64,000 bases of DNA from the NCBI GenBank assembly GCA_039931435.1, contig JBDTRY010000001.1:11084-75083 (forward strand). The letters are read 5' to 3'. Source of the stretch: Acidobacteriota bacterium (GTDB lineage: Bacteria; Acidobacteriota; Thermoanaerobaculia; Gp7-AA8). Below the pieces are notes generated by a model. The model was not told where the DNA came from. It worked only from the letters and a program-made list of their open reading frames with translations, and searched no databases. This document shows, in pieces, positions 1 to 34,932 of the stretch (positions are counted from its first letter, which is position 1; each line of letters starts with the position of its first letter). A program made the position numbers and the translations under genes.

Positions 1-3000
1 GTAGCCCGCAGGTCGCGAGGGTTCGTCGTTGGAATCGATGGCGTTGAGGTCGTAGACGCCGATGCCGAATCCGAACTGAGAGATCACGCCGTATGTCGTT
101 CGATTGCGGATGATGCGGAGACGATCGCCGGCGCGGGCAGCGATATTGGCGATGATCGCGGGAGTAAAGCTGGTCGAATCTCCAACCGCATCGCCAGACC
201 AGCGCATGTCCCGGGTGATGTTCTCAACCGTGATGCGCTGCAGGCGGTATGGATTCGCCGGATCGAAGGGCACCGTGACCCTGAGTCGTGCGAATCCTCC
301 ATCGAGCGGCTCGTCGCTGACGATCGACACGAGCGTGCGGAATGTCGCCAGGTCCACCTCTTCGCCAATGTCATCCTGAACGAGCAGCTGCAACTTCCGG
401 GGAATGGCCTCGGGGCGATCGGAAAGCACGGTGGCACTGCTCAGACCAAGTCCGCTGCTCACTCCCGGAGCCCAGGAAACGATCGCCGATGCGCCAGGCT
501 CGATGGACGCAGAACCACCCTCTCCGAAAAGGGACTCGAGTCGATAGGAACGGACAATTCCGAATTCCGGGGTCAGGCCTGTTGTGTAAAGGCGATTGTG
601 TCCGTCGCTGGCCACCGCCCAGTTGTCCGTGACTCCGGCGGGGATCGATGCAGCAAGCACCGGAGTGGCAGCGTGGGAAACGTCCCAGGCAGAGAGCCCG
701 CCGCTGAGAGCGGTGACGAAGAGCAGATTTCCGTTCAGGGACAGGTCGCGGATCTGGCCGCTGCTGATGTCGAACGATCCGAGATCGCCGCCCGGCTGCC
801 GAACCTGGAATCGCAGATCGAAGGGCTCAGTCAGCGGTGCAGTGGTCCCTCCGCCCGCCCGCGCCTGCCCGATGCGCATGCCATCCCGGTCTTGAATGTC
901 CTGACTGAGCCGCAGGCGGTAGAGGGCGCCGCGCGTCAGCGAGGATGGCAGATCGATGAGCAGCCGCCGGCCGTTGGAATCGAGCCGGTAGTGAACTCCG
1001 ACGACCGGGCCATAGGCAGGAACGTAACGAGGCGGAAGCGGATCGGGAGGACTCGCATCCTCTTCGAGGGTGAACAGCGACTGCAGGAACGAATCGACGC
1101 CGGCCTCGCTGCTGTCCGGCCCGGAGTTGATCGGCTCGCTGAATACAAGTGAAAGGAGGGTGCCCGGATCGACGTCGATCGTTGGCGCAGTGACAATGAC
1201 CTGATCGCCCACCGCAGCAGCTACCGCGTATTCGTTCGTGGCCAGGTCACGCGTGCGGTCGATCGTTCCACGTGTGGGGTCAAGAACGTTGATCGTGGCG
1301 TCCGCCGGAAGCTCGCTGGTGACGGGCACTTTGATTCTGGCGATTCCTCCCTGCAGCGTGACGTTCATTCCGGGGATCGAGGTGTCGGTGGCTCCCTCCC
1401 CGTTCAACAACACGGACTCGATGCGGAACGGAGTGCCGAAGACGGGATAGGGCCCGGCGGAATTGACGATGGGACTCTCGACCGTGACGCCGCTGCCGGG
1501 ATCGGTAACAGCGATGGGATCGTAGGCCTTTGAGAATGCCTGCTGTCCCGTGTTGGCATCGAAGCCCACGAGGGTGAACGGTTTGCCGCTGACGACCGGA
1601 AGGGCAACGCGACCGCGCTCGAGAAAGTAGGAGTGGGAGGCGTAGAGCGCTTCGTAGGTATCCCAGAAGAGGTCGTACTCAGGGTTCACGCCGTCGAGAA
1701 GAATCCATGCGGGGCTCGCCCCGGGCGGAACGTGCAGATCGACTACGGCGAAGATCCCGCTTCGTTCCAGCCCCAGCAGCGCATTCTTGACCTCGGTGCC
1801 GGTGAGGGTTTCGAGAGGCGAGAGGCGAGAGGCGAGAGGCGGGGGTTGAGAGGCGAGAGGTGAGAGGTGAGAGCTGAGAGGTGAGGCGTGAGAGGTGAGA
1901 GACGAGAGGCGAGAGGCGAGGGGTGAGGCTTGAGGCTCGTCGTTCATTGTCGCGCTGGTAGTCGCTGATTCGGTGGTGAAGTTGCCTCCGTCGAGGCGCA
2001 GGGTGTCGACGATCATGATTCGCGGGCCGCGAACGGATTGGCCCAGCGATCCGAGAAGGAAGTTGCGATTCGCAGTCAGAAGGCCGGAAGGAGTGGGAAG
2101 AGCGATCTCGAGCCGTTTCCTGGCGACGCATTCGATCGACGCCTGCGAACCACACCGGATCTCGACGCTGACGGCGGTGATGAAATCGAGGTCGTTGTCC
2201 AGGTTCGGGATGGCGGCGAACGGGTCTTTCCCTGTGGGTGCCACGTGGATTGTGGCCACGTCATCGAACGCCCCGGCCGGAACGTGAATCGTGATGCCGT
2301 CCTTCGAAGTGAAATCAGCGGCGTGATCCGGAGAGACGACAAACCCCTGGCCGTCCGACGTGACGAAAGGCGTGAGCGGAAGTACGGCCGCGACGTTCCC
2401 GGCACTGTTGATGACCTGAAGGTCGATGGAATCGGCGAGGGAGATCGAGTCGGGGCAGCGCGCACAACCGGCTTCAAACGAAAACGATCCATCGCTCGAA
2501 ACTGTAGCCTGATAGCGCGTTACGAAATCCACGCCACGTCGCACTGCCACCGCCTGCCATCCCGAAGTGATGGAGCCAGAGGTTCCGTAAATCCGGGACA
2601 CACCGTCCACAGGAATGGTGATGTGTATGCGGCGAGGGTCGACCGTGGAATCGGTGAGCTGGCTGATGGTCTCGAAGGTGAAGATCAGTGTCTGTCCGAG
2701 CGGCGTTCCGTTCGTGCCCCGGATTGCTGCCGACACGGTGACCATGTATCGGCCGTTGGGCTTCAGCCGCTCGCCGGGAGGTCGAGTCCACCCGAGACCT
2801 GCTGGATCGGCCGTGAGGATTCCGGGAACGATGGCGCCGGTGGCGTCGGTGAGCGACACCGCGCAAAGGCTCGTGCACGCGCCGGTCACCACCGAAGCCA
2901 CATCCAGGCCGGGGCTGACGTTGATGCGGATCGGCGTGGTCAGACTTACATTCTTCGCGCCATTTGCTGGCGTCGTGGATGTAATGACCGGGGGCTGCGG

Positions 3001-6000
3001 CGTGATGGGGAGATCGCCGATGCGCACAACCGATCCGAGGGCAGGGGCCGCGTTCGCGAGATATGCGGCGCCAGTTCCGGTGGTGGAGTGACGCGGCGTC
3101 AGGGCGAAGGGGGCGGCGGGCGCGGCCAGTACCGGTACGACGAAGAGACCGGAGGCGCGGGTGACGTCGGAGACGCCGAGCGCGGACGATCCTTGCGGCG
3201 TTCCGCCGGAAACGAGGGCATCGCCGAGGTAGATGCCGTCGCTGCGCAGGCGGACGGCGCCGGTGGCGAAGGCCAGAGGATTGTCCGCGACGAGCAGAAG
3301 GTAACGGCCTTCGTGGATGACGCCGTCGAGCGGAAGAATGGCGCGATCGATGGGAACAGTGGAAAGACGAGCGCCCGAAGGTGAAGGAGGAGGATCGATT
3401 GGGGCGACCTGTGCCACCATCCTGATGACGCGGCCGTAGGGCGTGGAGCCGAGAACTTCCGCGAGAATCAACTGCTCTGCGCCCGTCGCTGCATCGCGGG
3501 CAAAGGTGGCGCGGGCAGGCTTCAATAGCTCGAGCGGTGCGACAGCATTCTGCGCAGATGGATCAGCGGAATTTAGTGAGAGCTGGAAGCCGGCCAGGAT
3601 ACGAAATCCGGCGATCGCCCCGAACGACTGCAGCTCCTCCGCAGCGAGCGAGCTGGCCTGCGCGTGCAGCGCTTCATTCACGGCCCCTTCCGGAATCTCC
3701 ACCGCCACCCCGCTGTCCCCGGGCACGCGACCACCCTCGGGTCCCACCAGAGTTCCGCGGTCGAGCCTTCCGGGATAGGGCACCACGCGAACGTGATCGA
3801 ATCCGATCTCCAGGATGACCTGCGCAGCCCTGGGGCTCGGGGCGAGATGGAACCGGGCCTCGCCGGCGGCACCGTCGAGCGTGCGATAGATGAGGAGATC
3901 GGTGGCGAAGGGCGGATCGAGCACCGTCGAACCGTCCGCCAGGCGTAGTTCCTCATCCACCCAGGCCTGAACGGCCGTGCCGGATGGGAACTGTGGAGCC
4001 GGCGGCTGTGGCCCGTCGACGGAGATGCTGGCCACGGTCCTTCCCGTCGGGGCAACGATGGCCGGGTCGAGCGTGAAGCTTCGGGCGGTGAGAGAACATC
4101 CTTCCTCCAGCGAAGCACAGGAGTCGCTGATTCCCTGAAGCGGCGCGTTCCTCACCGGAGCCGGCGGAGAGACGCGTGGAGGCAGGTCACGATAGACAAG
4201 AGCGTACGATCCTGTAGTCAATATGTTGACTGTCACGGAGTCACCGCTGACACTCGCGGCGGGGTCGAGAACGATCCATTCGTCACGCTCGGAGTCGTAC
4301 TGAACGGCGGCCAGTGTCTGTGCTGCGCTGACGATGGCCGCTCCGGGAACGGCGAAGGTCAGGGCGGCGGAGGCCAGGCTGGAACGCTCCGGCTCCCGGC
4401 TCGAAGACACTTCGGCGGCTGCCAGCGGAGACCATCCGAGCGGAAGCAGACCGGGAAGGGCCTGGGCCCCGAGGGATGTGAGACGGATCGAGGTTCCGGG
4501 ATCGAGGCTGCCAGCGGGAACGTACAGAGTGACGCGACCACGCACGACGTCGGTACCTCCATCGCTCAGATCGAGATCGTCGCCGCTGGTGTCACCACTC
4601 TCCCCTCTCGTCTCGAGGCGTACATCGATGGGCACGACGCCCTGCCCCGCTGCGACGATAATCTGGCGCCAGGCTCCGGTGTGATCGGGCGCCGTAATTT
4701 GAATCGTGTGCGCGCCCTCGGGAACCCTGACCGTGTAACGGCCGCGGGCGTCGGTGGTTGCCGTGAATGTCTGTGCGGTGATCGTCGACTGCGCGGCGAG
4801 GGTTCTTCCCTCACCCGGCCCGGACACGGCGCGCGGGACTGAGCTCTTTGAGGTCTGGCTTCCCGTGACGCTCCCAACACTGAACGCATTCACGGGAACT
4901 TCTACGGTAACCGTTGCTCCGGCCAGCGGCCGGCCCGTGGTTGCGTCGAAGACTTCTCCGCTGATGAAACCGGATCCGTCTCCTGGCGGCGGCTCCTCGC
5001 CCTGGACCGTGAATGTCTGCGAGAACGCAGCGGTGAGGTTGTTTCCGGCCACGTCTTTCACGGCAGGGGTCACCGCCAGCGTGAACGTGATGGCGCTGAG
5101 GTCCTGTGCGGGTGCGATTGTCACCGAAGCGGGATTCAATACAGACACTGATCCGGATGCAGAGGTGCCAGAGGCCAGCTGCAAATGGACGGACCCCGAC
5201 GGTCCGACGGAGATGCTCGCCGGATCGACAGCTCCGGAGAAGGCGACGGTGATTCTGTTTGCTGTCCGATCGAAGGCGGCACTGAGCACCCGTACTCCGC
5301 CGCACACCGTCTGAAACGAGGATTCCGCCGCAGGCGAGAGCGAACCGTCGGCACCGGCAACGCGCACTCGCACGACGCGTACTCCTGCCTGTCCGGAAGC
5401 GGGAAGGCTGAACGAGAACCGCCCCGAGGAGTCGGCATCGGCGTTCAACACGAGAAGCCCGGACTGCAAACGAATTCTCGATCCCGATGGAGCGGATCCC
5501 GCGACGGTTACATTGCCGGTGCAGACGCCGATGATGGGGTCGAGCACGGGTGGTTGCAGCGGTGCAGTCGAGGCCACCGTAAATGAGGCGGCGAAGGGTG
5601 TGGCCAGGATGTTCCCGCCGAGGTCCTGGGCGCCGGTTGAAAGGGCGATGGTGTAACGCTCGCCGGCGGTGAGCAGGGCAGCGGGGCTGAAACTGAGCAC
5701 ATCGTTGTCGACATTGAAACTTCCGGTGACTGGCGTGCCACTCGAGGATCGAAGGGTGAAGGCGCCGCTGGTGGATGTGCCCTGCATGGCTGCAGAGAAA
5801 GAAACGAGGATGATCGCGCCGTTCTCGACGCTGAGTGCTCCATCCGCGGGAAACGTCTGCAGCACACGAGGAGCGGATGTCAGGTTCGTGACCCGGATGA
5901 GATCGACGGCCGAACGTCCGTCGGGCTGTCTCACTCTGGCCACGATCTGCGTAAGGCCGCTCGTCGAGAATGGCACGGTAGCGGTGAATCCCGACCCGCT

Positions 6001-10299: not shown

Positions 10300-10468
10300 G
10301 AATCGACAGCTGATGACGCCATCAGCGATCCATTTCGCAGCTCCGTCCGCCGGTACCCAATCGCGCCACGGTCTGATGTTCAAACGGTCTCCCGGACTCT
10401 TCTTATCGAAGCGTTGACGTGCCTCGTATGCGGCAAAAATCGCATCATTCATTGGTCTCCGCATCGCC

Positions 10469-19400: not shown

Positions 19401-22400
19401 TGATAGGCGAAGGGAGTGGCCGTCACCGCTGTGAGGAATGTGGCCGCCCCTCCCTCGACGAGGTAGTAGTCCACTCTGGCCACATCCAGGGCGGGAGATC
19501 CGACGGCGGTTCCGTTGCGAAGGTCGACGGCGAGCGTGTACTGCGTGCCGGCAATCAGCGGCTGTCCCGCGGACACAGGTGAGTTGAGGATGACGAACGG
19601 TCTCGTGGTATCCCGGGAGAAGAAGTGGAAGGTCTGCGTGTCCAGAGTATTGCCGGACAGATCGCGGACGCCGGAGAACACGACCCTGTAGAACGACTCC
19701 TGCTGCAGCGGATTATCCGGCGCGAAAAATAGCGATACGTTGTTGTTGGCAACGAAGACGCGGCCGCTGATCTCTTCGACCACGTTGCCGGCCACTCCCG
19801 CGGCGTCCAGCCGGTAGAGGTGGAACGCTCCCGCGCCGCCGCTCTGGAATGGTGCCGGATCGATGGCTTTGCTGAACTGGAACTCGAACGTCGTCGCTGG
19901 TTGCAGCGGCGTGGATGTGGAAGGAATGACTTTCACCACTCGCGGCTCGATGTAATCCGTGGTGATGAAGCTTGCCCCCGCTGCTGCTGCCAGCAGATGT
20001 CCGGAGAGATCCATGAGCTGTCCGGAGACAATCACGCGATAGAGCGTGTTGCTGCGAAGCGGGAATCGTTGGCCGGATGGCGGCGGAGGAGGAATGAGTG
20101 TGACGCGCTGCGAGCCGTCAGGAAGATTTTCGGTGTTGATCACGGTACTCACCGCTACGGAACCGTCAGCGGGAACGAGTTGCAGGCTGCTGCCGTTGAT
20201 CTGGTCGGGCCGGATCGCCTCGCTGAAGAGGATGACCACGGAACTGTCCGGCGAGACATTCGTCGAGCCGTCCGCGGGAGTGATGCTCAGTACTCGCGGC
20301 GCGGTGGAATCGAGTTTCACCGGTGGCGCTTCCAACGTGCGCTGGCCGCCGCCGATGCTCACGGTCTGCTGTGCGCCGATGGTGACGTCGTCCGCTCCGA
20401 GGTAGGTGAGGGTCACCAGAGTTCCCCCGGCAGGAACGGGAATCCCGGCGAGGGCGAACCGCCCGCTGGCCGTCGTCAGTGTTTCGACCACGATTCCAAA
20501 GCTGGCGATGACTCGCGTCCCGGAAGATGGGCCTCCTGCTTCCGCTTCCACAGAACCGCTGAGCGTGCCGTAGGAACCAAGTTCGATGGACAGCGTTGCG
20601 GGATTGGATTGGCTGGCCAACGTTCCGCTTGCCAGTCCGTTCAATCCGCCATCGAAGGATACGGCCTGCGCCGAGACGTTCCCCAGAGGCATGCCGGCAA
20701 CCGTCACGGTGCCGGACGGATCGGTGTATGCCTCGCGGACTCGACCCCCTCCGCTGACCGTCACGCGGGCACCGGCGGCCGGTGCACCTCCCTGGGTTAC
20801 GCGCACCTGCACCAATCCGAATGCGGGCAGAACGACCCGCAGCGGATCGACGGGGGATCCACGCGGAAAGACGCCGTTGTATCCGACCGTCCGCTCTGCG
20901 CCGCCGATCTCACGAGCAACGAGGGCATAAGGCTCCCGTTCGAGCATCCCCGGGATGCGCACGTCGTTGCCCTGAATTTCACGAGTCTGCTGGCAGACCG
21001 TCTGGAAGGAGACGATGGTGCAGAGCTGGCTGACATTGATCTGCACGAGGGGGGCGAGAACGCCCGAGTTGCCTCCGGCATCGTCCGGAAGAAAAACGCT
21101 GGCGTAGAGAGTCTGCGTAGGCTCGAGCTCCAGATTGACGAAGGGCCGCGGGTTTGACTGGGACAGAGAGGATGTGGCGGAAGCCCGCCGGTTCGACAGC
21201 GTGTCGCGTGCCGAGAGTGCGAATGTCCCCTCCCGCACACCCTCGAAGCTGAACGAGCCGGTCGCGTCAGTCGAAGCACGGGTCTGGAACGAACTGGCGG
21301 AGAGGGTGACCTGCGCTCCTGGAACACCGGCGCCTGCAGCCTCGGGATCGACCAACCTCCCGTCGACTCCGCCGCTGAATTGAAGAGTGATCGTCTGGTT
21401 TGCGCCCGCGCCGTTGACTACAGCGAATGGAGTCGTGGATCCGGATCGTCCGGCTGCCTTCGAGTAGGCCGAGGCAGTGTAGGTCCCGGCGGGAACGTCG
21501 AAGAACTTGGCAACTCCTGAGACATCGGATGACGTGAGATCGTAGGCCGCGCCTCCGCGCAGCAGAGTTACCTCGGCGTTCGATACCGGACCGTTGCCAT
21601 TGTTCGGATCGATGACGGTGATCGTCACCGGACCGAACCCTGCCGCGGCCACACCGATGAAAGCAGTGAGCTGCTCGCCCTCCACGGAAAGAGTCCCCGT
21701 CCAGTCTCCTCGCAGGTCGGGATTTGCAGGGTCGTAGGCCGTTGCCCGCAGCGGACCCTCGAAAAGATTGGCCACGGAGAATCGCCCCGAAGAATCCGCG
21801 CTCAGCGGATCGGCCGCGGTTCCGAAGTCGCGCGAGGGAAAGCCGATCTCCTTTACGAAGAACCGGGCAAGAGGAACAGGGGCGTTATCGCTGAGGTCCG
21901 CGGGAGTGTCATCGGGAATGGTCCTCGCCGGATCTGCGGGATCGGGTTTCAGATTGGCGAGGACGGCACGTCCTTCGATTCGCCCCTGCCGCCGCATGAC
22001 CACGCTCACATGTTCCACCGGTCCGCCCGCTGACGGAGTTGAGCCGTCTGCAAACCCCGTCCTGAAAATCGTGTTCTGCGTGGCTGTGGCGATCAACCGG
22101 AACGACCGTCCAGCGGACACGTTCTGAAACTCGAAGTGTCCATCGAGCGCCGTGGTCTGCGTTCCAAAGCTCTGGGCTCCGTCGTTGAGACTGATGCTCG
22201 CTCCGGCCACCGGCGTCACACCATCGATCTGATAGACCGTTCCGCTGACAGTGGAGAGCTTGTTCAATTGCAGAATGACGCTCTGCGCGTCACCATCGAA
22301 GGCCAGCTGCCCCAACGCTGAAGCGTACCCGTAAACGGGATGACTGCTCGTCACCACGTACTTCTGCAGTGCGGGAACTGCCGTGAAGGTCGCCGCTCCG

Positions 22401-25400
22401 GCCACGCCGTTCTCGGAAGTGGAACTCGTTCGATGCTTCGTAAGCGTCGACTGCTCGGCCTCGTCCCAGGCCTGATACGAGAGATCGACGTCACCGATGA
22501 CATCGATGTCCGCCCTGAGCGTGGCCCGGACGGTGCCCTGGCCAGGCAGACGCAATATCAGTGAAGCGATCTGTCCGGCGAAGGCAATCGAAGCAGTTCC
22601 GCTGGCGAACTGGTCGCCGTATGCTCCGCCCGGTCCCGGAGGAACCGCCCAGATCGTGGCTGAGCCGCCTGCGGGAACATTACGAAGCTCGTAGACTCCG
22701 GCCGCGGTGGCCTCGAGCAGCGTCGGCGGGAAGCCCGGCTGGAGAACACGGTAGCCGGCGACAGGAGAACCGGTCGCACTGAGGAGCCGCACGCGAATGG
22801 TTCCCGTCCCGTTGGAATTCCGGATGACGATGGGCAGCGAATTGGCGCGCGATGGATCGAGCGAGGGAACGGACACGGTAGCCGAGCGGCCTGTGCCAGG
22901 GTCGTAAGCGCGGACCTGCCTTCCGTTGAATGAGAGCGGAAGCGACGGAAATTCGTAGTGCCCGTTACCGTCGGCGACCGTGCTTCCCCCGTAATCGATG
23001 GCTACGATGGCGCCCGGCACGTTCTGATAACGGCTGAGGTCTCCGGGTGCCAGCGCATCCTCCCGCACGACATCTCCCTGCAGCGAAGCGGTGGCCGCCG
23101 CCGGATTGACGATCAGCGTGAGCGTCACATCACGGCTTTCGTCGGCGGCCAGGTCGAAATCCTGGACGGCGCTCTCCGGCGAGATCGTGAAGTCCGCGGC
23201 AAGGAGGCGAATGAGGCCGGCGGGCACGTTGGCAAAAACGAAGCGTCCGCCGGAATCAGCCGACGTTTCATTCACACCGTATCCCTGGCTGTAGAGACCT
23301 ACGCGCGCACCGGCCACTGCCATGCCGTTATCCGACCGCACCACCTGACCGCGGATAACTCCCACTCCCGGAAACGGCTGGCGGAAAATCGAGAGATCCT
23401 GATGGATGACCTCACCCGCGGATCGAATCTCGGCCGCGGCAAAACTGACGTTGCCCACGGCGTCGGTGGCACTGAAGGTAAGCGGCCCGGCGGGAAGATC
23501 TTCGACCGAATAGAAGCCAGTCTCGTCGGACGTGGTCTGCCGCAGTTGATCGAACATCGTGCTTCCCACCACGACCCGCGCGCCAGCGACCACACTTCCA
23601 TCATCGTAGTGTACGAAGCCCTCGGATCGGCCGCGGCCCAGGAAGACAAGGTTCACGAACTGCACACGCCCCGGCAGACGCACCGCGCCATCCAGCGACG
23701 TACGCCGTCCTGCAGTGCTCGTGGCACTCAGCGAATACGCTCCACTGAGACCGGCGTCCGGATTCCGAGGGACGAACTCGAACAGAAATGTTCCGTCGCT
23801 CTGTGTGATGTCGTACTGCACCCCTCCCCCGCTGTTCAGCTGCACCTCGGCATCGGCGATCGGTGAGTTGTCTGCGGCGAGCACCCTCCCGAACAGAATC
23901 CCCGCTGGCTGGTCGTTCTCCAGAACGGGAATCGAGGGATTGGTGAATGACACGGGCGATGCGGAGAGCGGGTCGAGCAGTGAGTCCACTGAAATCGCGT
24001 ATCGGCTGGGAGGATTGTCAGGAACGTTTCTGGAGAGAGCGTGATCGAAGCTGAGATTGATGATGCGGCCGTCCTCCTGCAACGCTGCCGAGGAGATCGG
24101 ACGGGAACCGTGGTACTGGACGCCATCAAACTGAAAGTCGAGGGTTGCGGCGAACTTGCTCAGGAGATCTTCTCCCGCGGGCACGGCCACAGGACGACTG
24201 AAAAGCACAGAGACAACGTGTCCCTGGCCATCCAGGTGAAGATCCTGATGGGCAGCAACCAGAGTCAGAGGAACTGGATTGACGGACTGAGAAGCGGCCG
24301 TGGCCACGAGGGCTCCGTCCGCATCGAGCAATCTCAGAGATCCGGCTCCGCGCACGAGGGAAAGATGAAGATCCCTTCCGCTTTCTCCATTGAAATCAAA
24401 GTGGGCGATGAGCGTCTGCCCATCAGCCGAGGCCGGAAAGACGACGTCGAGAGCCATGGGCCCGTTCAGGGCCGGAGTGACGACAAGCTCCAGATCTTCC
24501 GTCCAGCGGCCATCGACAGCGATTTCTCCCTGCCGCGATCCATCGCCGGCATTGACTGCAAGGATGTCCGCGAAGGGAAGTTCTCTGACCCAGCCTGCCG
24601 CACTTTCATTGGGCACATCGGCCCGCGCGCCCGAGCTCGCGCCTCGGATGGAGAGAGCATACGGGCGCGTCACGCCGCTGGCCGCTGGCCCGGACAGTGC
24701 GGCGAAAAGAAATGGAGATCGATGCGCCGTGAGGTTGGCGAACCTCTCGGCAATCGTCGAGAAATCGGGACCGGTTTGAAGTCCGGCAATCTCCAACTGA
24801 CGGCCGAGTGCGGCGCCGGCTGATCGTCCGGCGTCTTCCGCGCGACGGAGCTGATCCCATTCACGGAGTTCCGTCCTGTTGCCGAGGAGATCGAGCGTGA
24901 GATTGGCCCATGGATCGAGAGGCTCGGCACCGAGAAATACTCGTTGACCAGCGCGGGCGATATCCACGGCCCGCTGGAAGACATCCGTCTGAATGACCCG
25001 CGGAATGCTGGCCGTAGCCTGGGTGAGGGGCGAGGTGGCCACGCTGTAGCCCAGTCCGAGGAGCCCCATGTTGGCCTCGACGAATGATGAGTCGAGATAG
25101 CGGGCGTAGTAGGGAAGAACCAGCGTGGCCGGAGACAGAGGAATGCCGCTCTCGCTCACTCCCATGGTCAACTGCACCGCCGCCGCGAGGTTCTCACTGT
25201 CCACCGTTCCGGCGGTGGCGAAAACGCTTCCGGTCACCCCGGCACGAAGGTGGTAGAGGATCGACTTCGTCTCCCCTGCGGCGAGGGTGAGCTCGCTGGA
25301 CTGCGCACCATCGACCCGGCAGACATTCGCGCCGGGCGACTGGGCGCAGTCCGGGACAACATTGCCTACGCGAATGGTCTGCGATACGCCGCTGTGGTTG

Positions 25401-26668
25401 GTGATGAAGGAGGATGAGGAGTAGTCCTCACCCTTGCGCACCGTATCCGGATGAGAGAACGTGATGCTGAACCGGGGGTCATGCACCTGGATCGAGGCCC
25501 GCGCTGTGCCCCGCAAGGGCATATCGGCCTGACCGGGAGTCTGCAGCGTGGCCCGGATGTCTAGTTCCACCGTATGCACGCCCGGCTTGAGACCCTCCAT
25601 CACCCACTCAGCATTGCCCTCGGCCTGAGCCACAAGAAAATCAACGCCGCTCGCGGTATCGACGATCGGCACTGCTGCACCGAAGGTGACCGAGGGAGTT
25701 GTCTTCACTGTGCGCAACTCGGCGGGTGTAGTCATCGTGGCCCGGATGGAATCGAGCCTGATGCTGCTTCCCGCCGCAGTGTCATTCTGGACGGCGAGCA
25801 TGATGGAGAAGAACTGATGGAGAACCGCGAACTGGTTGGGGATGACCAGCGCCGCAGGGATGGAGTGCCGTGCCGGCGGACCTGAACCCGATAGAGGCGG
25901 TGCGTCCGGTTCCGGAATGGAGGGCCCGGCCTCGTAGAGCTCGATCGGAATCGTGGCCGGCGGTGTCCATCGCGGCGGCAGTGGCAGAGTGTCCGGGGGT
26001 AGCCGGTATGGATTCTCCGTGACCGGCAGGCGTGGCTCATGCGTCCGGGAGTCGATGATTACCGGGAACGGGACCTCCACGAGTTGTCCGTTTACCAGGA
26101 ACGAAAAGGTGTACTCGTAGACGTCGTAGTTCGTGGTATCGACGTTGATGCCTCGCGCTCTGATTTCTTCCGGGGTCAGCTGCCTGACCCGCACGCTGGT
26201 GGTGAAGAGATTGGTTACGGTGATCGTCACCAGGGAGGGTGAAGCCGGCTGAAGAAAATTGCTCCTGCTCATCAGGCGGATGTTCTGTAAAAAGTACACG
26301 CCTTCGCGGGAGAGCCCGGGAAGTTGAAACTGATGTCCCGGTGCTGTCTGAAACTGAATGGGAGCGTCGAGTCCGGGTCCGGTGAGCTCGCCGAGAACGA
26401 CCAGCCCCTCTACCACCGGTGCGGCATCGTTCTGCTTTCCGCCAAACTCGGTCTGAACGCTGACCGGAATGTCGATGGCCGTCGTCACCGACTCCGTGAC
26501 CACGCGCAATCCGGAGCCCTGGATCTGCAGATCTGCCGCGGCGATCGTCTGGGCGTAGCCGCTTCCGGCAGCGCAGAGATGGAGCACGGCCAGGAATAAC
26601 GAAATCCCCAGGGAACGCACAGCAATGCCGCTAAACCAGAGGGACGAAACACGATGGCCGACTGTCAT
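10469..26668 (-). CDS. Giant secreted repeat protein A (about 5,399 aa from the Met at 26668; the track ORF extends to 27034). Signal peptide, CarboxypepD_reg-like and Ig-like (Big) repeats, a Gly-rich beta-helix-like segment, then about 8 reiterated modules of LVIVD-type beta-propeller-like repeats alternating with Ig-like domains.
   Basis: Single 5,521-aa ORF in the track. Internal Met at 26668 starts MTVGHRVSSLWFSGIAVRSLGISLFLAVLHLCAAGSGYA|QT, which is signal-peptide-like. The upstream 122 codons run through palindromic repeat DNA and look non-coding. Motifs seen: SDGxF/GxYxF carboxypeptidase-regulatory-like repeats; ITPADGSTNVSPDSSVVILFSEAI Ig-like; VVIFDLNDP, VLIMDRRDP, VTVIDRRDP, VVIFDRRDP, AVILDRRDL (LVIVD-like) recurring about every 350 aa in the C-terminal half. 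Confidence 0.85.
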   Translation of the reverse strand: MTVGHRVSSLWFSGIAVRSLGISLFLAVLHLCAAGSGYAQTIAAADLQIQGSGLRVVTESVTTAIDIPVSVQTEFGGKQNDAAPVVEGLVVLGELTGPGLDAPIQFQTAPGHQFQLPGLSREGVYFLQNIRLMSRSNFLQPASPSLVTITVTNLFTTSVRVRQLTPEEIRARGINVDTTNYDVYEYTFSFLVNGQLVEVPFPVIIDSRTHEPRLPVTENPYRLPPDTLPLPPRWTPPATIPIELYEAGPSIPEPDAPPLSGSGPPARHSIPAALVIPNQFAVLHQFFSIMLAVQNDTAAGSSIRLDSIRATMTTPAELRTVKTTPSVTFGAAVPIVDTASGVDFLVAQAEGNAEWVMEGLKPGVHTVELDIRATLQTPGQADMPLRGTARASIQVHDPRFSITFSHPDTVRKGEDYSSSSFITNHSGVSQTIRVGNVVPDCAQSPGANVCRVDGAQSSELTLAAGETKSILYHLRAGVTGSVFATAGTVDSENLAAAVQLTMGVSESGIPLSPATLVLPYYARYLDSSFVEANMGLLGLGYSVATSPLTQATASIPRVIQTDVFQRAVDIARAGQRVFLGAEPLDPWANLTLDLLGNRTELREWDQLRRAEDAGRSAGAALGRQLEIAGLQTGPDFSTIAERFANLTAHRSPFLFAALSGPAASGVTRPYALSIRGASSGARADVPNESAAGWVRELPFADILAVNAGDGSRQGEIAVDGRWTEDLELVVTPALNGPMALDVVFPASADGQTLIAHFDFNGESGRDLHLSLVRGAGSLRLLDADGALVATAASQSVNPVPLTLVAAHQDLHLDGQGHVVSVLFSRPVAVPAGEDLLSKFAATLDFQFDGVQYHGSRPISSAALQEDGRIINLSFDHALSRNVPDNPPSRYAISVDSLLDPLSASPVSFTNPSIPVLENDQPAGILFGRVLAADNSPIADAEVQLNSGGGVQYDITQSDGTFLFEFVPRNPDAGLSGAYSLSATSTAGRRTSLDGAVRLPGRVQFVNLVFLGRGRSEGFVHYDDGSVVAGARVVVGSTMFDQLRQTTSDETGFYSVEDLPAGPLTFSATDAVGNVSFAAAEIRSAGEVIHQDLSIFRQPFPGVGVIRGQVVRSDNGMAVAGARVGLYSQGYGVNETSADSGGRFVFANVPAGLIRLLAADFTISPESAVQDFDLAADESRDVTLTLIVNPAAATASLQGDVVREDALAPGDLSRYQNVPGAIVAIDYGGSTVADGNGHYEFPSLPLSFNGRQVRAYDPGTGRSATVSVPSLDPSRANSLPIVIRNSNGTGTIRVRLLSATGSPVAGYRVLQPGFPPTLLEATAAGVYELRNVPAGGSATIWAVPPGPGGAYGDQFASGTASIAFAGQIASLILRLPGQGTVRATLRADIDVIGDVDLSYQAWDEAEQSTLTKHRTSSTSENGVAGAATFTAVPALQKYVVTSSHPVYGYASALGQLAFDGDAQSVILQLNKLSTVSGTVYQIDGVTPVAGASISLNDGAQSFGTQTTALDGHFEFQNVSAGRSFRLIATATQNTIFRTGFADGSTPSAGGPVEHVSVVMRRQGRIEGRAVLANLKPDPADPARTIPDDTPADLSDNAPVPLARFFVKEIGFPSRDFGTAADPLSADSSGRFSVANLFEGPLRATAYDPANPDLRGDWTGTLSVEGEQLTAFIGVAAAGFGPVTITVIDPNNGNGPVSNAEVTLLRGGAAYDLTSSDVSGVAKFFDVPAGTYTASAYSKAAGRSGSTTPFAVVNGAGANQTITLQFSGGVDGRLVDPEAAGAGVPGAQVTLSASSFQTRASTDATGSFSFEGVREGTFALSARDTLSNRRASATSSLSQSNPRPFVNLELEPTQTLYASVFLPDDAGGNSGVLAPLVQINVSQLCTIVSFQTVCQQTREIQGNDVRIPGMLEREPYALVAREIGGAERTVGYNGVFPRGSPVDPLRVVLPAFGLVQVRVTQGGAPAAGARVTVSGGGRVREAYTDPSGTVTVAGMPLGNVSAQAVSFDGGLNGLASGTLASQSNPATLSIELGSYGTLSGSVEAEAGGPSSGTRVIASFGIVVETLTTASGRFALAGIPVPAGGTLVTLTYLGADDVTIGAQQTVSIGGGQRTLEAPPVKLDSTAPRVLSITPADGSTNVSPDSSVVILFSEAIRPDQINGSSLQLVPADGSVAVSTVINTENLPDGSQRVTLIPPPPPSGQRFPLRSNTLYRVIVSGQLMDLSGHLLAAAAGASFITTDYIEPRVVKVIPSTSTPLQPATTFEFQFSKAIDPAPFQSGGAGAFHLYRLDAAGVAGNVVEEISGRVFVANNNVSLFFAPDNPLQQESFYRVVFSGVRDLSGNTLDTQTFHFFSRDTTRPFVILNSPVSAGQPLIAGTQYTLAVDLRNGTAVGSPALDVARVDYYLVEGGAATFLTAVTATPFAYQFVAPTLPGEGTLTLRAIATDLSLNVSDPSEITWSVVQDNVPDNVSVILTPSTESYAGKRVHAQVRFADEGVLVSVQVNVAGTQSDGSTYAASKSVEVRRDTAGDPWPAAEIDFDLPPALKGPSQATFTAHVTDSTGQSSADVTSQLAILEDSGAPALTILSPANDALFEEGAGNKIQVRVRATDSEVGLKSVTAELEGTPPVVMTSINATDFTADIPVPFVDGTDPVSKSLTVVASDYVPNVTTKSIALLIQPLVDAKAPVVTWLCGSDGARAPAGYAMRLRISAIGNSAGNTSNPVQTIEFFVDGVPDAIPATPVPGASGQFEGTYTIPVDAPAGTVVTVHAHATNVAGLEEEATSTITVVAGRTIGNDTTISASDLSWDNQTLIVQGGTATIDGPHSFTNFVVLDGAAVTHPPTQISLIKRLQVTADNVFVSCNGVVDASRRGFSDSVGGVGRTWPGSLAGGSPQGVGGSHGGRGGAGGGFTFGSLFDPDTPGAAGGEGDCTSCGGGGGVVMFDSNRFVLDGLVRANGADSAYGAGAGGSVNIRALTLSGSGQIHADGGRGVHPEGSLQRGTGGGGGRVALRFTSSTLAGSNITASGGDNTESNDARRGAAGTIYFKPTAAPYGSLIVSNSSLSTMTTDLVMIDSRQADSLTSNSVHTTGASFLGPDHLKGLRLVVGGDRSVTWPVLANDTETITVDVSANSLSATVGAPFRGLDRFDSVVLRNAHVLTNDYFESSSTIDKDSASTLVSANTGAPLVDTTKISLVGNVSGYSLVGLAGAVLDPDQPLAITVRNNRTDQTFTGTAGADGSFSIPVTGQGGDVVAIKALDSHPYPLETAFLDVGTITGNAGAPALDAARITLAGLSIIGDPGAVTDPDLPILLIARNDRTSSLYSAQANVDGSFAVVVDGQSGDTISLIARDSNPLPLDSARVVVGTLALETGTTQIEKSTWTSDAAFRARRVANDGSVIAVSSYPASATDGVSPVVAILDSSNPAVPTLLRATILPDPVRSVTVASGDVLALTTSDSVGARVFSIRPADGTFTNSPSARFSTAETMLAAGDRLYVAANSGIAVLDVRDPAALQLLGGVNGVLSPPMNFRSLVALDSRFIVAISPEQSGGQGHDVVVFDFADESSPRKIADLDVPSFDAAAGTIHGRTLFLVSSANAEVVSVDLSDPAAPAVTARAPLLAPAGNIASIETDAFAADGTSGLVTLDLSQPLASSVRGYIALPGPAVDVALTANFAFVADESGLAIVPVRTAPVIDLAAISVNRSGANGTVTGTAGAIRGLVSLQVTLRDPARGSVLSGLAVNSDGSFAGSLPASPGDELTIEVLDGGGKTAGPVSVGRLPFGATFSNSFDPAVLATGFRARAMAVEGNDLIVSDTDWADEQSTPDRILHFDISDPSRPVLKRSVPIPPNVYALALKDGWALIGDSYGLETIDLRDPASVLRQPPGTGDLFLDGAILVQGEFAFTAPGGEYDGRIRLYDISNPSSPRFLKDQSGFSEGIYTQLLPYGSDYLIGLDPDEYWGGDVDVVIFDRRDPGHLKKTGALSIPLFSAFRGAVTGNALYAAGLDGKLAVIDLSDVNAPVLRVLVETPGGSPHAVVAQQQTLWIADGSAGLTQLNISDPFNPVVVGSQTLSAPAWDIASDGRAMFVAHETGLTTVEEIALEPELANGLIHVTSSAAAAVSGEQGAAHGLLPLQVELRNARTNAVGTSMVSGDGSFAVGVAAITGDRLEITLVDGNAVRGRPLDLGPFSAVPALPIAASVSDANYGPRSLKLAGTTLVAADESFPLTAGSDKLVLYDASTSVPSYLRTVTVGNGVISDVKVSGNWAFIADRGLSTVNLGSLSTTAATNQSSGSYPQNAVAIAGDIAFVGGYDGDITVYNVASPAAPVFIKRYSSSTGLNHAVIEELIPLGADHLVALTRRSVYRPVVDRAVILDRRDLNAISSVAELALPELLEPRGTVNGSFLYLLDQSSAELIVVDLTSPATPVVRGRVTLPANGQTLEVAGSTVTIACGFAGLVTVDVSNPSTPLITSTTAIDGYAWDSARTAEGVYVANGKGLVFIDAPSPPTIAVGGISIQPLSATEARVTGPAQTVTGRAPLAVQVMDAESGATATTVVAADGSFGVTITAATGDTLTLLASDRGGLSRGPVTIGTVPAFSADLNILASAIALTKSSAGVVVLTGSPGSITGTGSISATVTNQSASTTAGPVSVNADGSFSASIAGLTGETMAVTASDGVNSLGPVVVGSAPPDPFISVPVTADISDSNFRARQVAADGDRLLLASHDDAGEGGSDKVVIFDLNDPGAPAYVTTVSTGNGPVNDVLAAKGWAFVASNALSTFALDQSTPSVHALTTTAPTEAIALAGTYLYGSWKTTSGTYLDVWDVSDPSEPRRLFEDLLYPSAVSITALLPYGDDYLVGLSATEDVSGDHDVLIMDRRDPDYPWVISTLGIPGLRAFRGRIVGSTLFITGTDGRLGTVDLTDPANPRLIGAVTTSGSARGVDLAGSRAVVAESGGTEMLDVSNLAAPRSISLEPTASVAWDVLLHRGTLYVAADSELRSYTSTAPPIVDPSAIVIDRTGSNASVTGAPGSISGKPPLVVAVQASRSGTTASASVPADGSLTMTLIADPGESILLTATDGAGKSNTRIIGTVPFASSTATRRITATDTDGDTSFIGRRLAIDAQHLVLSGGFSFFASDGSNQVLAFDSQVTPVTPSRLIPVLDEGLWISDVALNGHWLLATGTGLTAIDLSQPNPTPVTSSSQEATVALALDSTYAFTTAEGEGISVYDISALPSLSFVSTLSSLPRVQSLKLLGSDYLVAISADVVAGVVQDVTVIDRRDPAALSVVGRLDIPDFDAVNGFIDGTTLYATGDYYEYANALAVVDLSDPADPQFVKLVPLPGAGSGMAVTAGNQLLVASGSSGLAFLDITNRQNPLLLGTQKTPGNAVDVEVFLNTIYVATEEQIFTLTAP

Positions 26669-26764
26669 CCTGAGCGTCGAGCGAAGGATCTCTTCCACCT
26701 TCCCGGTTGCCAGCCCATTCCACGTTGAAGAGATCCTTCGCTCGCTGCGCTCCCTCAGGATGAC
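26664..26764. repeat. Imperfect inverted repeat (REP/MITE-like palindromic element). Left arm gtcatcctgagcgtcgagcgaaggatctcttc, right arm gaagagatccttcgctcgctgcgctccctcaggatgac, with a 31-bp loop. It overlaps the proposed start codon of giant gene A.
   Basis: Arms are reverse complements at about 26 of 32 positions. Two further degenerate copies of the same 26-mer at 26806..26832 (gtcatcccgaacgtgagtgagggatc) and, inverted, around 26890..26915. The arms translate to VILS..K/R.L-type peptides. Confidence 0.7.
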
Positions 26765-26984
26765 AAGTGCCTCAAGTGCGTTTCCTTCAAATGAACGCGT
26801 GGCTGCGTCATCCCGAACGTGAGTGAGGGATCGCGGAGGGATGGGTGGTTCGAAGCCCTCTCCTGCGTACCACCCGCCCCTCTCGGGCTCCTCGCTCACG
26901 CTCGGAGTGACGTGGCTTCCCCTGGGTGAGTTTCCTGCCAGGGAGCGACGAGCAACGGGACGGGCGATCATGCAGGGGCGTGCA

Positions 26985-27848
26985 TCACGGCTTGACCGCC
27001 GCGTCCGGGAGCGCGTCCATCTCGTGAAGCGCACGACCCGCTTTCACGAGATTCGATTCGACGAGCCGCGACCCGGCCGGAACGGCCAGCAGGTCGGGCG
27101 GAACAAACTCACTCCCCACACGCACGATTGAGTTCCTGAACTGCAGGTGCTGGCCGGAGCGATCGAAACGAATGACGATCTCCAACGGCAAGCCGATCTG
27201 TTCAGCGTTCGAGGTGCTCTGCGCCGAGACCGGGCCATCCGGCGACCCTGCCGCGGTAAACACCGCCGCGGTGGAGATGCCGGGGGTGGAAGGGTAGGCC
27301 GAGCCTGTGAGAACTTCGATGGCCGGACGGGACAGCCTCATCGTCCGATCGAGGGTGATCGTCACGGTTCCCTCTCCGTTTGCCAGGGTAACCTCGAAGA
27401 CGTCGCCCATCCGTCCGGCGATCGATCGCGGAGGAGTGGTGGCCATCGTTCCCTGCAGTGGCTGGGACGAAGATTGCGCTGGCCGCGAGGTCATAGCGCG
27501 GCCAGCTGCAGCAATCAATTGAAACGGCGTCACGCTCCAGGTGCCGGAGCGACGGTCGATTTCAGTCAACTGGTTCTTTGCGTAATCGGCGATGACCACC
27601 CGCGATCGATCGCGTGAGACAGACACCACCCGGTCGGCCAGGCAGTACTCGTCGACGGCGTCGATTTTCCCCGAGAGCGAATCGGAGACTTCGCGGGTGA
27701 GGTGCAGCGGTGAAGGAAAGAGCGCAGGTGGTTCGCCGGCAGCGACGCCCGTGCCGGCCATAGCACCAGCCACGAGCACCATGCTCGCCAGTTTCGTGAG
27801 ACGAGACTTCCAGCACGTCGCGTCCCTGAGCGACTTTCGAGTCCGCAT
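26985..27848 (-). CDS. Hypothetical secreted protein (287 aa), immediately upstream of and co-oriented with giant gene A.
   Basis: ORF in track. N-terminus ...LASMVLVAGAMAGTGVAAG is signal-peptide-like (an alternative start at the internal Met is possible). No family recognised. Confidence 0.5.
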   Translation of the reverse strand: MRTRKSLRDATCWKSRLTKLASMVLVAGAMAGTGVAAGEPPALFPSPLHLTREVSDSLSGKIDAVDEYCLADRVVSVSRDRSRVVIADYAKNQLTEIDRRSGTWSVTPFQLIAAAGRAMTSRPAQSSSQPLQGTMATTPPRSIAGRMGDVFEVTLANGEGTVTITLDRTMRLSRPAIEVLTGSAYPSTPGISTAAVFTAAGSPDGPVSAQSTSNAEQIGLPLEIVIRFDRSGQHLQFRNSIVRVGSEFVPPDLLAVPAGSRLVESNLVKAGRALHEMDALPDAAVKP

Positions 27849-28115
27849 TTTGGCCTTTGCCTAAGGAGTGATTTTGGAAGGCCAATCCCTACCCCGTGAG
27901 CGCGAAAATAGGCACATGGATGTAGGGTTTCTAGAACTTTCGGGTAACTCGGGACCCGTAGTTGAGGCGGACCGCGCCCGCTCCGAGATCGCTATTGACG
28001 ATCGCCTCATGAGGGTCGGAGACCCAACCACCCCCAGACGCACGAACGTCCAAATCTCGATGAGAGATGGCTGACCAATTCTGGACGGATGCCAGCCGTC
28101 ATACGTTACTAGCGC

Positions 28116-28556
28116 ATGAGCCTACGCGGCTGGGCAGTTGCGTTCATCTTTCTCGTTTGTGCCTCACAACACTTATTCGGGGCAACCCTGGATATTGACA
28201 CCGGATACTCCTCCGCCGTAGCTCCCCTTCCGAATGGGCTGGCCATCGTATGGAATCACTCCGAGTATGACGAGCTCCAGCACGTGAAAACAACGGTTAT
28301 GGGCGGCAAAGTGATCAGTGGGAAGCTCGTCAGTTCTCGCCCTCTCGAGAGCGGCGAGTACCTTTACAAACTCCGCCTGGGTTGCCACGATCAGGACTGT
28401 CTCGCCACGTGGAGTGTCCCCTCGGCATTTGGGTTGACGATCAGAGGGATCTGGTTGTTTTCCAGTCTTCCCGCCTTCGACATCGCTGAAACGGTGTGCG
28501 AGTACGCCACTCCGGAGTGGAACGGCGACAGTTTCATTATCACCGCAGGCTTCTGA
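28116..28556 (+). CDS. Hypothetical small secreted protein (146 aa) with signal peptide.
   Basis: ORF in track. MSLRGWAVAFIFLVCASQHLFGA signal peptide. Shares the motif GLAIVWNHSEYDE with the two following ORFs (RILIVWDDETKEKE, FRVVWTIPSDSGS). Confidence 0.5.
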   Translation: MSLRGWAVAFIFLVCASQHLFGATLDIDTGYSSAVAPLPNGLAIVWNHSEYDELQHVKTTVMGGKVISGKLVSSRPLESGEYLYKLRLGCHDQDCLATWSVPSAFGLTIRGIWLFSSLPAFDIAETVCEYATPEWNGDSFIITAGF

Positions 28557-28559
28557 GCC

Positions 28560-28997
28560 GTGCACTATTACGGTTTAGTGCCGCGGGCGATCAAAGCCAT
28601 CCGGCTTCAGCCAGGGTCGGACACGGTGTCCTCCGTATCGGTTCCGGTCGATATCTCGGCCGCTGCCAATTCTCCGCGGTCGGCAGCTTGTTCAGCTTTG
28701 TCCTGCCTTCTCTCGTGGATCGAGTTCCCGCCGTTCGACCCGGCCGGCTTCGATCCGCCCCCCGCTTCGGTCGGACAGGCCGTCCTCATGGACCGAGATG
28801 GATTTATACGAACCGCCGTTCCAATTCAGCTGACCAGAAGAGGATCTATCGGAAACCGGGGAAACCTGCAGACCGCGGAAAACGGGGGGCGAATTCTCAT
28901 CGTATGGGATGACGAGACGAAGGAAAAAGAAAGTTCAACTTCTGGCTCTCCTGATGACCGATACCGGAATCGATCTTCGCGGCCGGGAGGGCGGTGA
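28560..28997 (+). CDS. Hypothetical protein, N-terminal part of a possibly frameshifted gene (GTG start 4 nt after the preceding stop).
   Basis: ORF in track. Contains DRDGFIRTAVPI and NGGRILIVWDDE motifs that recur in the overlapping +1-frame ORF 28909..29301. The overlap region contains the A-run ggaaaaagaaag. Confidence 0.35.
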   Translation: MHYYGLVPRAIKAIRLQPGSDTVSSVSVPVDISAAANSPRSAACSALSCLLSWIEFPPFDPAGFDPPPASVGQAVLMDRDGFIRTAVPIQLTRRGSIGNRGNLQTAENGGRILIVWDDETKEKESSTSGSPDDRYRNRSSRPGGR

Positions 28998-30875: not shown

Positions 30876-30910
30876 CCGCTCAGTCCTTCCCGGCTATGAC
30901 TCGTGATGGT

Positions 30911-30927
30911 TCGATTATCGAACCGCG
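30911..30927. promoter_or_regulatory. Perfect 17-bp palindrome GGTTCGATTATCGAACC, 36-52 bp upstream of the FHA-regulator start codon and about 45 bp downstream of the parC stop. Candidate operator or terminator-like hairpin (no U-tract).
   Basis: Read directly: ggttcgat t atcgaacc. A second short hairpin cgcag-gctttc-ctgcg lies at 30945..30960. Confidence 0.4.
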
Positions 30928-34910: not shown

Positions 34911-34932
34911 CGTGCCTCCTCGTTCGGATTCA

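Follow-up and report, generated by a model that had tools for sequence, protein, structure and literature searches.

The window analysed here, a stretch of 64,000 nucleotides (nt) from contig JBDTRY010000001.1 of an Acidobacteriota bacterium (Thermoanaerobaculia), carries on the minus strand of its first 27,848 nt three co-oriented genes, named S, A and B, which code for a small protein with a signal-like N-terminus and for two giant proteins, the second of which is cut by the window edge. Across related loci, the conserved block consists of S, A and B plus, in most of them, a small downstream open reading frame (ORF), and the window holds the first three of these genes. An earlier note on this DNA, made from the letters alone, had already taken the three as one co-oriented module, in agreement with the order kept across related loci.

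The ORF holding gene A runs uninterrupted on the minus strand from 27034 to 10469, and its translation from ATG 26668, the start of the signal peptide, gives 5,399 amino acids (aa) identical residue for residue to the public gene call P0059, as against the roughly 5,400 aa given in the earlier note. The frame of gene B contains zero stop codons from 10500 to 1, so none of the stops or frameshifts feared in that note between 9600 and 2000 is present, and from ATG 10299 (MALVILLWTSFAPATAFAQ...) the gene is open for 3,433 codons until it exits the window, which bears out a protein of at least 3,433 aa running off the edge. Since B homologues reach 7-19 residues further N-terminally than this start, translation may instead begin at TTG 10383, which would shorten the A-B spacer to 85 nt. 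Both giants begin with signal-like N-termini, as expected from the Sec signal peptides claimed for them, and the gap of about 170 bp without a convincing terminator is a spacer of 169 nt, in which neither a terminator-like nor a sigma-70-like site was found. For S, the 287-aa ORF and its signal-like N-terminus stand; it was said to lie immediately upstream of A, but a spacer of 316 nt separates the two. S is 100% identical to an NCBI protein in a metagenome-assembled genome (MAG) labelled 'Acidobacteriota bacterium' (locus tag ABI718_00035), the NCBI version having 265 aa and starting at M23 (nt 27782).

B homologues and their Rhs-toxin ends

Homologues were found for the last 801 visible residues of B, including P0010-P0013, and on the 497-kb contig_21817 a B homologue is followed by DUF6531 and RHS genes. 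Because this contig is full of frameshifts, one genome per species was scanned with an alignment of the B tail, a scan with the single B tail sequence having found no relatives. The alignment recovered 12 loci, all from Thermoanaerobaculia or Acidobacteriota MAGs, and the complete B homologues (L007, L011, L012, L013 and L017, in short-read assemblies) are single stop-free ORFs of 5,816-6,629 aa, which extend 2,479-2,802 aa past the point where B is cut by the window. Over aa 1-3427, B is collinear with L011_B (5,827 aa) and L017_B (5,816 aa) at 43-44% identity, and in the homologues the pre-RHS region with which the visible part of B ends has about 580 aa after it, followed by DUF6531, RHS repeats, the Rhs-associated core and a toxin. 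The extensions of L007, L011 and L013 were searched with Pfam and those of L011 and L013 also with NCBIfam; DUF6531 and RHS_repeat (62.7-86.5 bits, cut-off 22) were present in all three, YD repeats (YD_repeat_2x) and Rhs_assc_core TIGR03696 in L011 and L013, the latter with 37-48 bits (cut-off 32.5) in L011, L013 and the short protein P0056 described below. The L011 extension also matches by sequence solved Rhs core structures of the type VI secretion system (T6SS; 8qjb, E 9e-10). The Rhs tails of L012 and L017, to which no domain scan was applied, rest on BLAST to P0056 and, for L017, also on the DPxGY...DPxNxxDPxG motif. LVIVD repeats were absent from the extensions of L007, L011 and L013.

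The Rhs core of the homologues ends in ...RARW...PDPxGY.DS.NLY....DP.N..DP.G., the strict DPxG pattern being present in 8 of 9 sequences (homologues and short chimeras), with the exception of L012, which has the variant DPMGYKDSSNLYAFCHGDPVG. The B-type sequences are 39-65% identical pairwise up to the DPxGY...DPxNxxDPxG motif and unrelated after it, and the C-termini that follow, of 252-495 aa, are mutually unrelated. That of L013 is an LHH nuclease (PF14411, E 1e-15), and the 495-aa C-terminal region of L007 (~19100-19600) gave Hint/intein-splicing-like matches under the Pfam cut-offs (21.2 and 26.4 bits); Hint/intein-like modules are auxiliary processing elements in some polymorphic toxins. 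Four of the five complete B homologues, all but L011, have a small ORF starting 0-13 nt behind them, and so does the RHS gene of the frameshifted copy on contig_21817. These ORFs are unrelated between loci, and immunity families were recognised at two: SMI1/KNR4 (SUKH-1, E 3.5e-21) in the ORF after the LHH toxin of L013, and an Imm33-like protein in L020, where the ORF follows a short chimera. RHS repeats, core, variable toxin and small downstream ORF in the homologues are the defining marks of polymorphic toxin systems, and since collinear homologues continue into RHS repeats, core and variable toxin, B is most likely a Sec-signal giant Rhs polymorphic toxin of about 5,900 aa by homology, whose toxic end would lie off the window. 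The B homologue of contig_21817 is either a decaying copy or an artefact of long-read assembly; on the same contig (L004 7003-7659), a PIN/PrlF toxin-antitoxin pair on the opposite strand interrupts it between the equivalents of B aa 1807 and 1848.

In the visible part of B, Pfam assigned mostly Ig-like domains together with one CarboxypepD_reg, as the earlier note had proposed. The N-terminal domain of 245 aa has no Pfam or PDB-sequence match, no toxin domain was found, and a profile of the B tail recovered only marginal, irrelevant chains among PDB sequences. LVIVD gave no match at E<=0.05 in B, searched as the whole protein and in chunks, and a model built from the modules of A recovered only a weak LVIVD-like blade of 5.7 bits at aa 3185-3225; LVIVD repeats, which had been attributed to both giants, are significant only in A, where both of the LVIVD-like peptides quoted before are located. 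The N-terminus of B is signal-like and carries no known trafficking domain of the PAAR/VgrG (T6SS), two-partner secretion (TPS; type V secretion system, T5SS) or LXG/WXG (type VII secretion system, T7SS) type, which places B in the Sec-dependent class. Within the pre-RHS region, at aa ~2790-2830 (window 1810-1932, minus strand), there are low-complexity SPLASRLS-like repeats (PLASRLSSLTSHASPLSSHLSPLASQPPPLASRLSPL), with a single similar copy in P0012.

Protein A, protein S and the short chimeras

The N-terminal 860 aa of A, modelled with AlphaFold2 (AF2) at pLDDT 80, form a beta-sandwich (D1, aa ~51-210), a disordered proline-rich linker (aa ~217-283), which together make up most of the A-head, more beta-sandwiches, and a small helical bundle of about 130 aa (aa ~520-647). 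Pfam has no match in aa 41-900, and Foldseek of the model returned only generic strings of Ig or alpha-2-macroglobulin MG domains at TM ~0.1; an assignment of A as an alpha-2-macroglobulin was rejected, as it has neither a CxEQ thioester motif nor an A2M Pfam match. The run of CarboxypepD_reg and Ig-like domains that follows agrees with the domains the earlier note had read in A, where CarboxypepD_reg reaches 155.8 bits and Big_5 71.7 bits. The glycine-rich stretch placed at about 17600..18080 is also there (A aa ~2860-3025), within a longer GGxGG segment which may be a beta-helix and for which nothing significant was found in Pfam or PDB sequences, fn3_6 reaching 16.9 bits, under its cut-off. 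LVIVD (PF08309) scores 133 bits (cut-off 20.2) in the second half of A and 37-54 bits in each 540-aa piece from aa 3241 on, next to Big_6 (68 bits) and Beta_propel (31.5 bits); the tip contains five tandem modules of about 400 aa, mutually 29-33% identical, each with an Ig-like domain of ~90 aa and an LVIVD beta-propeller of ~310 aa. A search of A and the visible part of B for LPXTG, PEP-CTERM, RTX repeats, thioester and extra transmembrane segments found none of these, with one chance GGxGxD, in line with the absence of a sorting signal noted for A before, and the Pfam scans of both revealed no SLH domain. The idea of A as a lipoprotein was rejected as well, Cys32 lying outside a canonical lipobox and being absent from homologues. 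Overall, A does look like a long surface fibre of Ig-like and transthyretin-like domains with beta-propellers, and this part of the adhesin or S-layer-like apparatus suggested by the earlier note holds; the part concerning B does not, its homologues being Rhs toxins, and neither SLH domains nor sorting signals were found.

The N-terminal 860 aa of A have 45 homologues, most of them partial (cut by contig ends), the named sources of which are all Thermoanaerobaculia or Acidobacteriota. A phmmer search with A aa 41-290 against representatives of clusters at 50% identity found 692 representatives with E<=1e-3, of which 407 reach E<=1e-10; the match was always N-terminal in the host protein (positions ~25-290), and most of the proteins that look complete among the matches listed have 3,000-7,367 aa. 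The giant relatives have the first ~3,180 aa of A in common, the glycine-rich segment being retained in most of them, and the LVIVD tip is found in only 14 of 141. One giant has Calx-beta repeats as its tip, and the A-type gene upstream of B in L005 carries F5/8 type C domains according to Pfam; the A-type ORFs of L009 and L015 have discoidin-like tails resembling that of L005, the Pfam confirmation of F5/8 type C applying to L005 only. As some 3,180 aa are common and the tips differ, A is one member of a large fibre family with a conserved body and a variable tip. Longer intermediates with an A-head, of 1,146-1,994 aa, have only D1 in common.

S has no match at E<=0.01 in Pfam or NCBIfam, including the LolA, LolB and MucB_RseB families. 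Its AF2 model (pLDDT 82, pTM 0.77) was matched by Foldseek to LolA, RseB/MucB, VioE and ependymin (EPDR1) in the PDB, with 81 matches at E<=1e-3 and probability 1.0, which indicates a predicted LolA/RseB-like open beta-barrel fold at the superfamily level only. Its signal-like N-terminus makes S probably periplasmic. In 29 of 30 loci an A-head gene comes after the S homologue, namely in all eight loci examined first (including three short metagenomic contigs, contig_21817 and three loci of the short form) and, among the 22 JGI loci that leave room downstream, in 21; A-head genes are in turn always accompanied by an S gene. The conserved synteny that the earlier note proposed to check is thus borne out for the small upstream gene; no gene upstream of S is conserved across the loci.

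The A-head is also found outside the giants. In four proteins of 854-898 aa (P0055-P0058), the A-head runs up to ...AVLHQF and is followed by the last ~340 aa of a B-type Rhs shell with the DPxG motif, after which come mutually unrelated putative toxins of 268-304 aa. The junction is the same in all of them, they are intact and mutually 42-53% identical, and P0056 is 62% identical to A up to the junction ...AVLHQF. In the three loci examined (L018, L020, L021), the chimera gene is preceded by an S homologue and followed by a distinct small ORF, which is Imm33-like in L020; transposase genes were observed near the short chimeras of L018 and L021. Since these chimeras join the A-head to an Rhs tail and a toxin, each with an S gene, they link the A and B gene families and tie the A-head and S to toxin trafficking, which suggests that S and the A-head may constitute a trafficking module able to carry a toxin.

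Gene order, spacers and neighbouring genes

Among the loci where the start of B is visible, a co-oriented A-type ORF precedes the B homologue in L005, L007, L009, L011, L014, L015, L017 and contig_21817, that of L010 not being established; LVIVD-type C-termini of A lie directly upstream of B in L007, L011, L014 and L017, and the complete order S-A-B-RHS is found on contig_21817. The coordinates of the block, its domains and the short chimeras are collected in Table 1.

Table 1. Features of the S-A-B block (window positions, minus strand) and loci of the short chimeras (locus positions)
Feature	Nucleotides	Amino acids	Strand	Content or basis
Gene S	26985..27848		-	287 aa; signal-like N-terminus; predicted LolA/RseB-like fold
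S-A spacer	26669..26984		-	316 nt, two long hairpins
Gene A	10469..26668		-	5,399 aa; ATG 26668 = signal-peptide start
A signal peptide		1-40	-	sequence
A-head	25802..26548	41-289	-	beta-sandwich D1, proline-rich linker, first strand of next domain
A N-terminal body	23969..25801	290-900	-	beta-sandwiches around helical bundle; no known family
A stalk	18299..23911	~920-2790	-	CarboxypepD_reg (transthyretin-like) run, two Big_5, Big_7, other Ig-like
A CarboxypepD_reg domains		~920-2110	-	155.8 bits, 8 significant Pfam stretches
A two Big_5 domains		2120-2350	-	Pfam, 71.7 bits
A Big_7 and other Ig-like domains		2360-2790	-	Pfam
A glycine-rich GGxGG segment	17129..18298	2791-3180	-	sequence
A tip	10472..17128	3181-5399	-	Big_6-like Ig domains and five Ig-plus-LVIVD modules
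A tip modules		3276-3672, 3684-4087, 4109-4494, 4596-4994, 4990-5399	-	sequence comparison
A-B spacer	10300..10468		-	169 nt
Gene B, N-terminal part	1..10299		-	3,433 codons, cut at window edge
B signal-like N-terminus		1-19	-	sequence
B N-terminal domain		20-265	-	no known family; no Pfam match
B Ig-like array		~270-1470	-	Big_13, eight Glucodextran_B, Big_7, Big_3_3 (Pfam)
B Big_5, Big_6-like, Big_5, CarboxypepD_reg		1474-1895	-	Pfam
B conserved region		1900-2430	-	no known family; homologues
B third Big_5		2435-2545	-	Pfam
B pre-RHS region	1..2652	2550-3433	-	conserved in homologues
Short chimera, L018	2382-5063			S homologue upstream, distinct small ORF downstream
Short chimera, L020	4411-6975			S homologue upstream, distinct small ORF downstream
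Short chimera, L021	1852-4548			S homologue upstream, distinct small ORF downstream

The spacer between S and A folds with a minimum free energy of -147 kcal/mol (z-score -4.4; 0 of 100 shuffles fold as well), one of its hairpins being a perfect stem of 18 bp (26678-26695 with 26727-26744) which ends about 10 nt before the start codon of A. Rfam offers no meaningful match to the spacer, three matches lying far below the gathering score (E 0.26-0.72), and none of 44 related loci contains the stem sequence. Homologous loci leave 25-27 nt between the called S and A genes or have them overlapping by 4 nt, and the S- and A-matched segments of the JGI loci are separated by 44-145 nt. The hairpin spacer could be an inserted element or a translational or attenuation structure. 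Scans of the window for tRNA genes and Rfam families revealed no tRNA and no match at the gathering score, a permissive scan giving three chance-level matches.

Upstream of the module, the interval of about 27900-29700 has a GC content of 0.576 versus about 0.63 and lacks convincing genes; an ORF of 146 aa at 28116-28556 (plus strand) has a signal-like N-terminus and no Pfam match, and the interval may be either the promoter or regulatory region of the S-A-B module or decayed DNA. A HicB-like ORF (29739-29945, plus strand, assigned by eye) overlaps by 4 nt a HicA toxin ORF (29942-30184, plus strand, PF07927, E 6e-11), and this toxin-antitoxin pair lies between the block and housekeeping genes. 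On the minus strand at 30258-37512 there are a protein with FHA and Trans_reg_C (OmpR-type winged helix) domains, a ParC/GyrA-like topoisomerase subunit and an 859-aa Ser/Thr kinase with TPR repeats, and at 40977-49461, also on the minus strand, a Che-like cluster of a response regulator, CheB, CheR, a 746-aa HEAT-repeat protein and a CheA-CheW fusion. The window genes scanned (Che-like, amidase, RodZ, O-antigen ligase, ParC-like, kinase) include no secretion-system genes.

Interpretation and competing explanations

The combination of signal peptide, RHS and beta-propeller is a recognised Sec/T2SS (type II secretion system) class of polymorphic toxins (PMC3482391, Table 1), and B resembles this class in having an N-terminal signal peptide in place of PAAR, VgrG or TPS. 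The likeness extends to the RHS/YD repeats, DPxG...DPxG core and hypervariable toxins (e.g., LHH) of its homologues, and to the adjacent immunity gene, SUKH-1 after a B homologue or Imm33-like after a short chimera. The differences concern the size of the B homologues (5,800-6,600 aa, of which the Ig-like stalk and unassigned conserved regions ahead of the RHS part take up about 3,400 aa), the constant presence of a second giant gene, A, and of S ahead of the B-type gene, and the host, a diderm in which no outer-membrane export route was found in the genes scanned. WapA of Bacillus subtilis, a Sec-exported Rhs/YD toxin, is also among the nearest counterparts of B. B is a new and very large addition to an already known Rhs toxin class. 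That such a toxin is invariably accompanied by another giant fibre, and by a LolA-like protein paired with a novel N-terminal leader domain, has, as far as literature searches show, not been described before; no description of the S-A-B locus was found by them.

Other known systems share parts of this arrangement. The A tip, with its five propellers, resembles the LVIVD surface proteins (PF08309) of archaea and bacteria; the propellers are, however, one of several interchangeable tips on a body of ~3,200 aa, and B is not an LVIVD protein. S resembles LolA, LolB and RseB (MucB) in fold and in its signal-like N-terminus, but lacks a sequence-family match, and a conserved lipobox is missing from its partner A. 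A LolA-like gene with a toxin leader domain is not among the trafficking modes given in PMC3482391, in the first 300,000 characters of the main text of which 'LolA' occurs 0 times. TPS and contact-dependent inhibition (CDI) systems (TpsA-TpsB, CdiA-CdiB) likewise place a small, conserved gene for the partner 5' of the gene for a giant filamentous protein with a conserved N-terminus and a polymorphic C-terminal toxin; S, however, is predicted to be a soluble LolA-like protein of 265-287 aa versus an Omp85 barrel of ~550 aa, and the A-head is a beta-sandwich rather than a TPS beta-helix, without FhaB/haemagglutinin repeats. The RTX giant adhesins of the type I secretion system (T1SS; LapA/MpIBP type) differ from A and B, which start with signal-like sequences and have no HemolysinCabind match, and cell-wall- or exosortase-sorted and S-layer proteins differ from A and the visible part of B in their LPXTG, PEP-CTERM or SLH elements. 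Delivery through T6SS, T5SS or T1SS was rejected because no PAAR, VgrG, TPS or RTX element was found.

Taken together, the data point to the S-A-B-(immunity) module of Thermoanaerobaculia-type Acidobacteriota as a Sec-dependent system of contact-dependent antagonism, that is, a polymorphic toxin system, a reading to which a probability of roughly 0.7 is given. B, which in its visible part has a signal peptide, an Ig-like stalk of ~1,900 aa and then the conserved pre-RHS region, would continue beyond the window edge with a DUF6531 plug, an RHS/YD shell and an Rhs core ending in the DPxG...DPxG self-cleavage motif, and would end in a strain-specific C-terminal toxin of 250-500 aa followed by a small immunity gene. 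A would be a second fibre of a length similar to that of B, and its variable tip would bind a target surface; the pattern of exchanged tips would suit a role of this end in target binding or tethering. Following Sec export, S would chaperone or anchor the A-head, binding it or handing it over; A and B would extend as fibres of ~100 nm, as estimated from domain counts; the strain-specific toxin, once self-cleaved, would be carried in the distal RHS cocoon of B, and kin would be protected by the immunity protein encoded downstream.

Several points weigh against this interpretation. For the B of this window, RHS repeats, toxin and immunity gene would all be situated past position 1, outside the window. 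Neither the window genes scanned nor the inspected flanks of related loci revealed an outer-membrane export component (T2SS, TpsB, T6SS or type IX secretion system, T9SS). The TM-scores of the S model against the PDB are modest (0.28-0.42 by query, 0.17-0.63 by target; identity 6-14%), so that S has only the fold in common with the LolA superfamily, and there is no conserved lipobox Cys in the A homologues; with A not being a lipoprotein, the classical LolA function does not apply to S. The short chimeras, which lack a full RHS shell, might be deletion products, though conserved ones. Finally, physical cooperation of A and B, which we infer, could be absent, as adjacency may reflect co-regulation alone.

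A more far-reaching version of the antagonism reading would make S and the A-head an undescribed Sec-dependent trafficking or anchoring route of Acidobacteriota that mounts giant fibres and Rhs toxins, with A as an obligatory delivery partner of B, in a two-fibre apparatus for contact-dependent killing (or predation) with interchangeable tips and toxins; this is proposed tentatively, as a possibility that is less likely than not. The rival explanations are ranked with A and B as independent neighbours first, followed by pure adhesins and by a Tc-like ABC complex. According to the first, which is unlikely, A and B would be merely co-located or co-regulated, A with S forming an adhesive fibre, B being a self-sufficient Sec-type Rhs toxin, and the short chimeras being deletion remnants. 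B indeed comes with a separate signal peptide, its N-terminal domain is unrelated to the A-head, and the chimera junction falls at a short patch of similarity (LVAxFKAGAS versus AVLHQF) that could have promoted a deletion. Nevertheless, the order of A and B has been held in at least eight loci despite 40-45% sequence divergence and the exchange of A tips, and the chimeras are intact and still 42-53% identical, with S upstream and a distinct small ORF downstream in all three loci examined, which argues for selection.

A second explanation takes A and B as non-toxic giant adhesins or S-layer-like proteins for attachment or biofilm, with S as an accessory secreted protein. Ig-like, transthyretin-like and propeller domains, as are typical of adhesins, account for most of the two giants, the A family carries tips of the lectin or adhesion type (LVIVD, Calx-beta, F5/8 type C), and the visible part of B has no toxin domain; all the complete B homologues, however, go on to an Rhs tail and a variable toxin, with a small ORF after four of five, immunity families follow the L013 homologue and the L020 chimera, and neither an SLH domain nor a sorting signal is present, which makes this explanation very improbable. 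Teneurins combine a transthyretin-like domain, an FN-plug, an NHL propeller, a YD shell and a toxin, and B homologues share with them and with Tc toxins an RHS/YD shell after a DUF6531 plug, possibly a propeller, transthyretin-like (CarboxypepD_reg) domains and a large partner gene upstream. A Tc-like (ABC) complex, with A in the role of a TcA-like translocator and with B as a fused TcB-TcC cocoon docking onto it through a beta-propeller, recalls in its large gene followed by a propeller(?)-RHS-toxin gene the order tcA then tcB-tcC, and would accommodate the weak propeller-like blade ahead of the RHS part of B and the five repeated tip modules of A. It is nevertheless hardly credible, since that blade falls short of demonstrating a propeller, Pfam shows no SpvB, TcdB middle, VRP1 or TcA-TcB binding domain or other TcA signature in A, B or the three homologue extensions scanned, A is nearly all beta-sandwich and propeller and shows nothing like a long helical region that could form a pore (only the ~130-aa bundle in the modelled N-terminal 860 aa, and none in Pfam scans), and its five modules sit in one chain and are no evidence for a pentamer.

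Polymorphic Rhs toxins are a major currency of bacterial warfare, and their known delivery is through T6SS, T5SS/CDI, T7SS, Tc-like complexes or, in monoderms, Sec export. If S and the A-head do form a trafficking module, they would add a new leader-and-partner pair to the toxin export modes, in a lineage of A-head proteins that is abundant, unstudied and found in soil, with at least 692 protein clusters at 50% identity. Annotation pipelines name such genes 'carboxypeptidase regulatory-like' or 'Ig-like domain-containing', and contig breaks conceal the toxin end; the short forms of 850-900 aa (S, A-head-Rhs tail-toxin and candidate immunity ORF) are small enough to be tested experimentally. 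A trafficking module of this kind, if S and the A-head do form one, would also explain how Acidobacteriota, dominant but poorly cultured bacteria of soils, compete.

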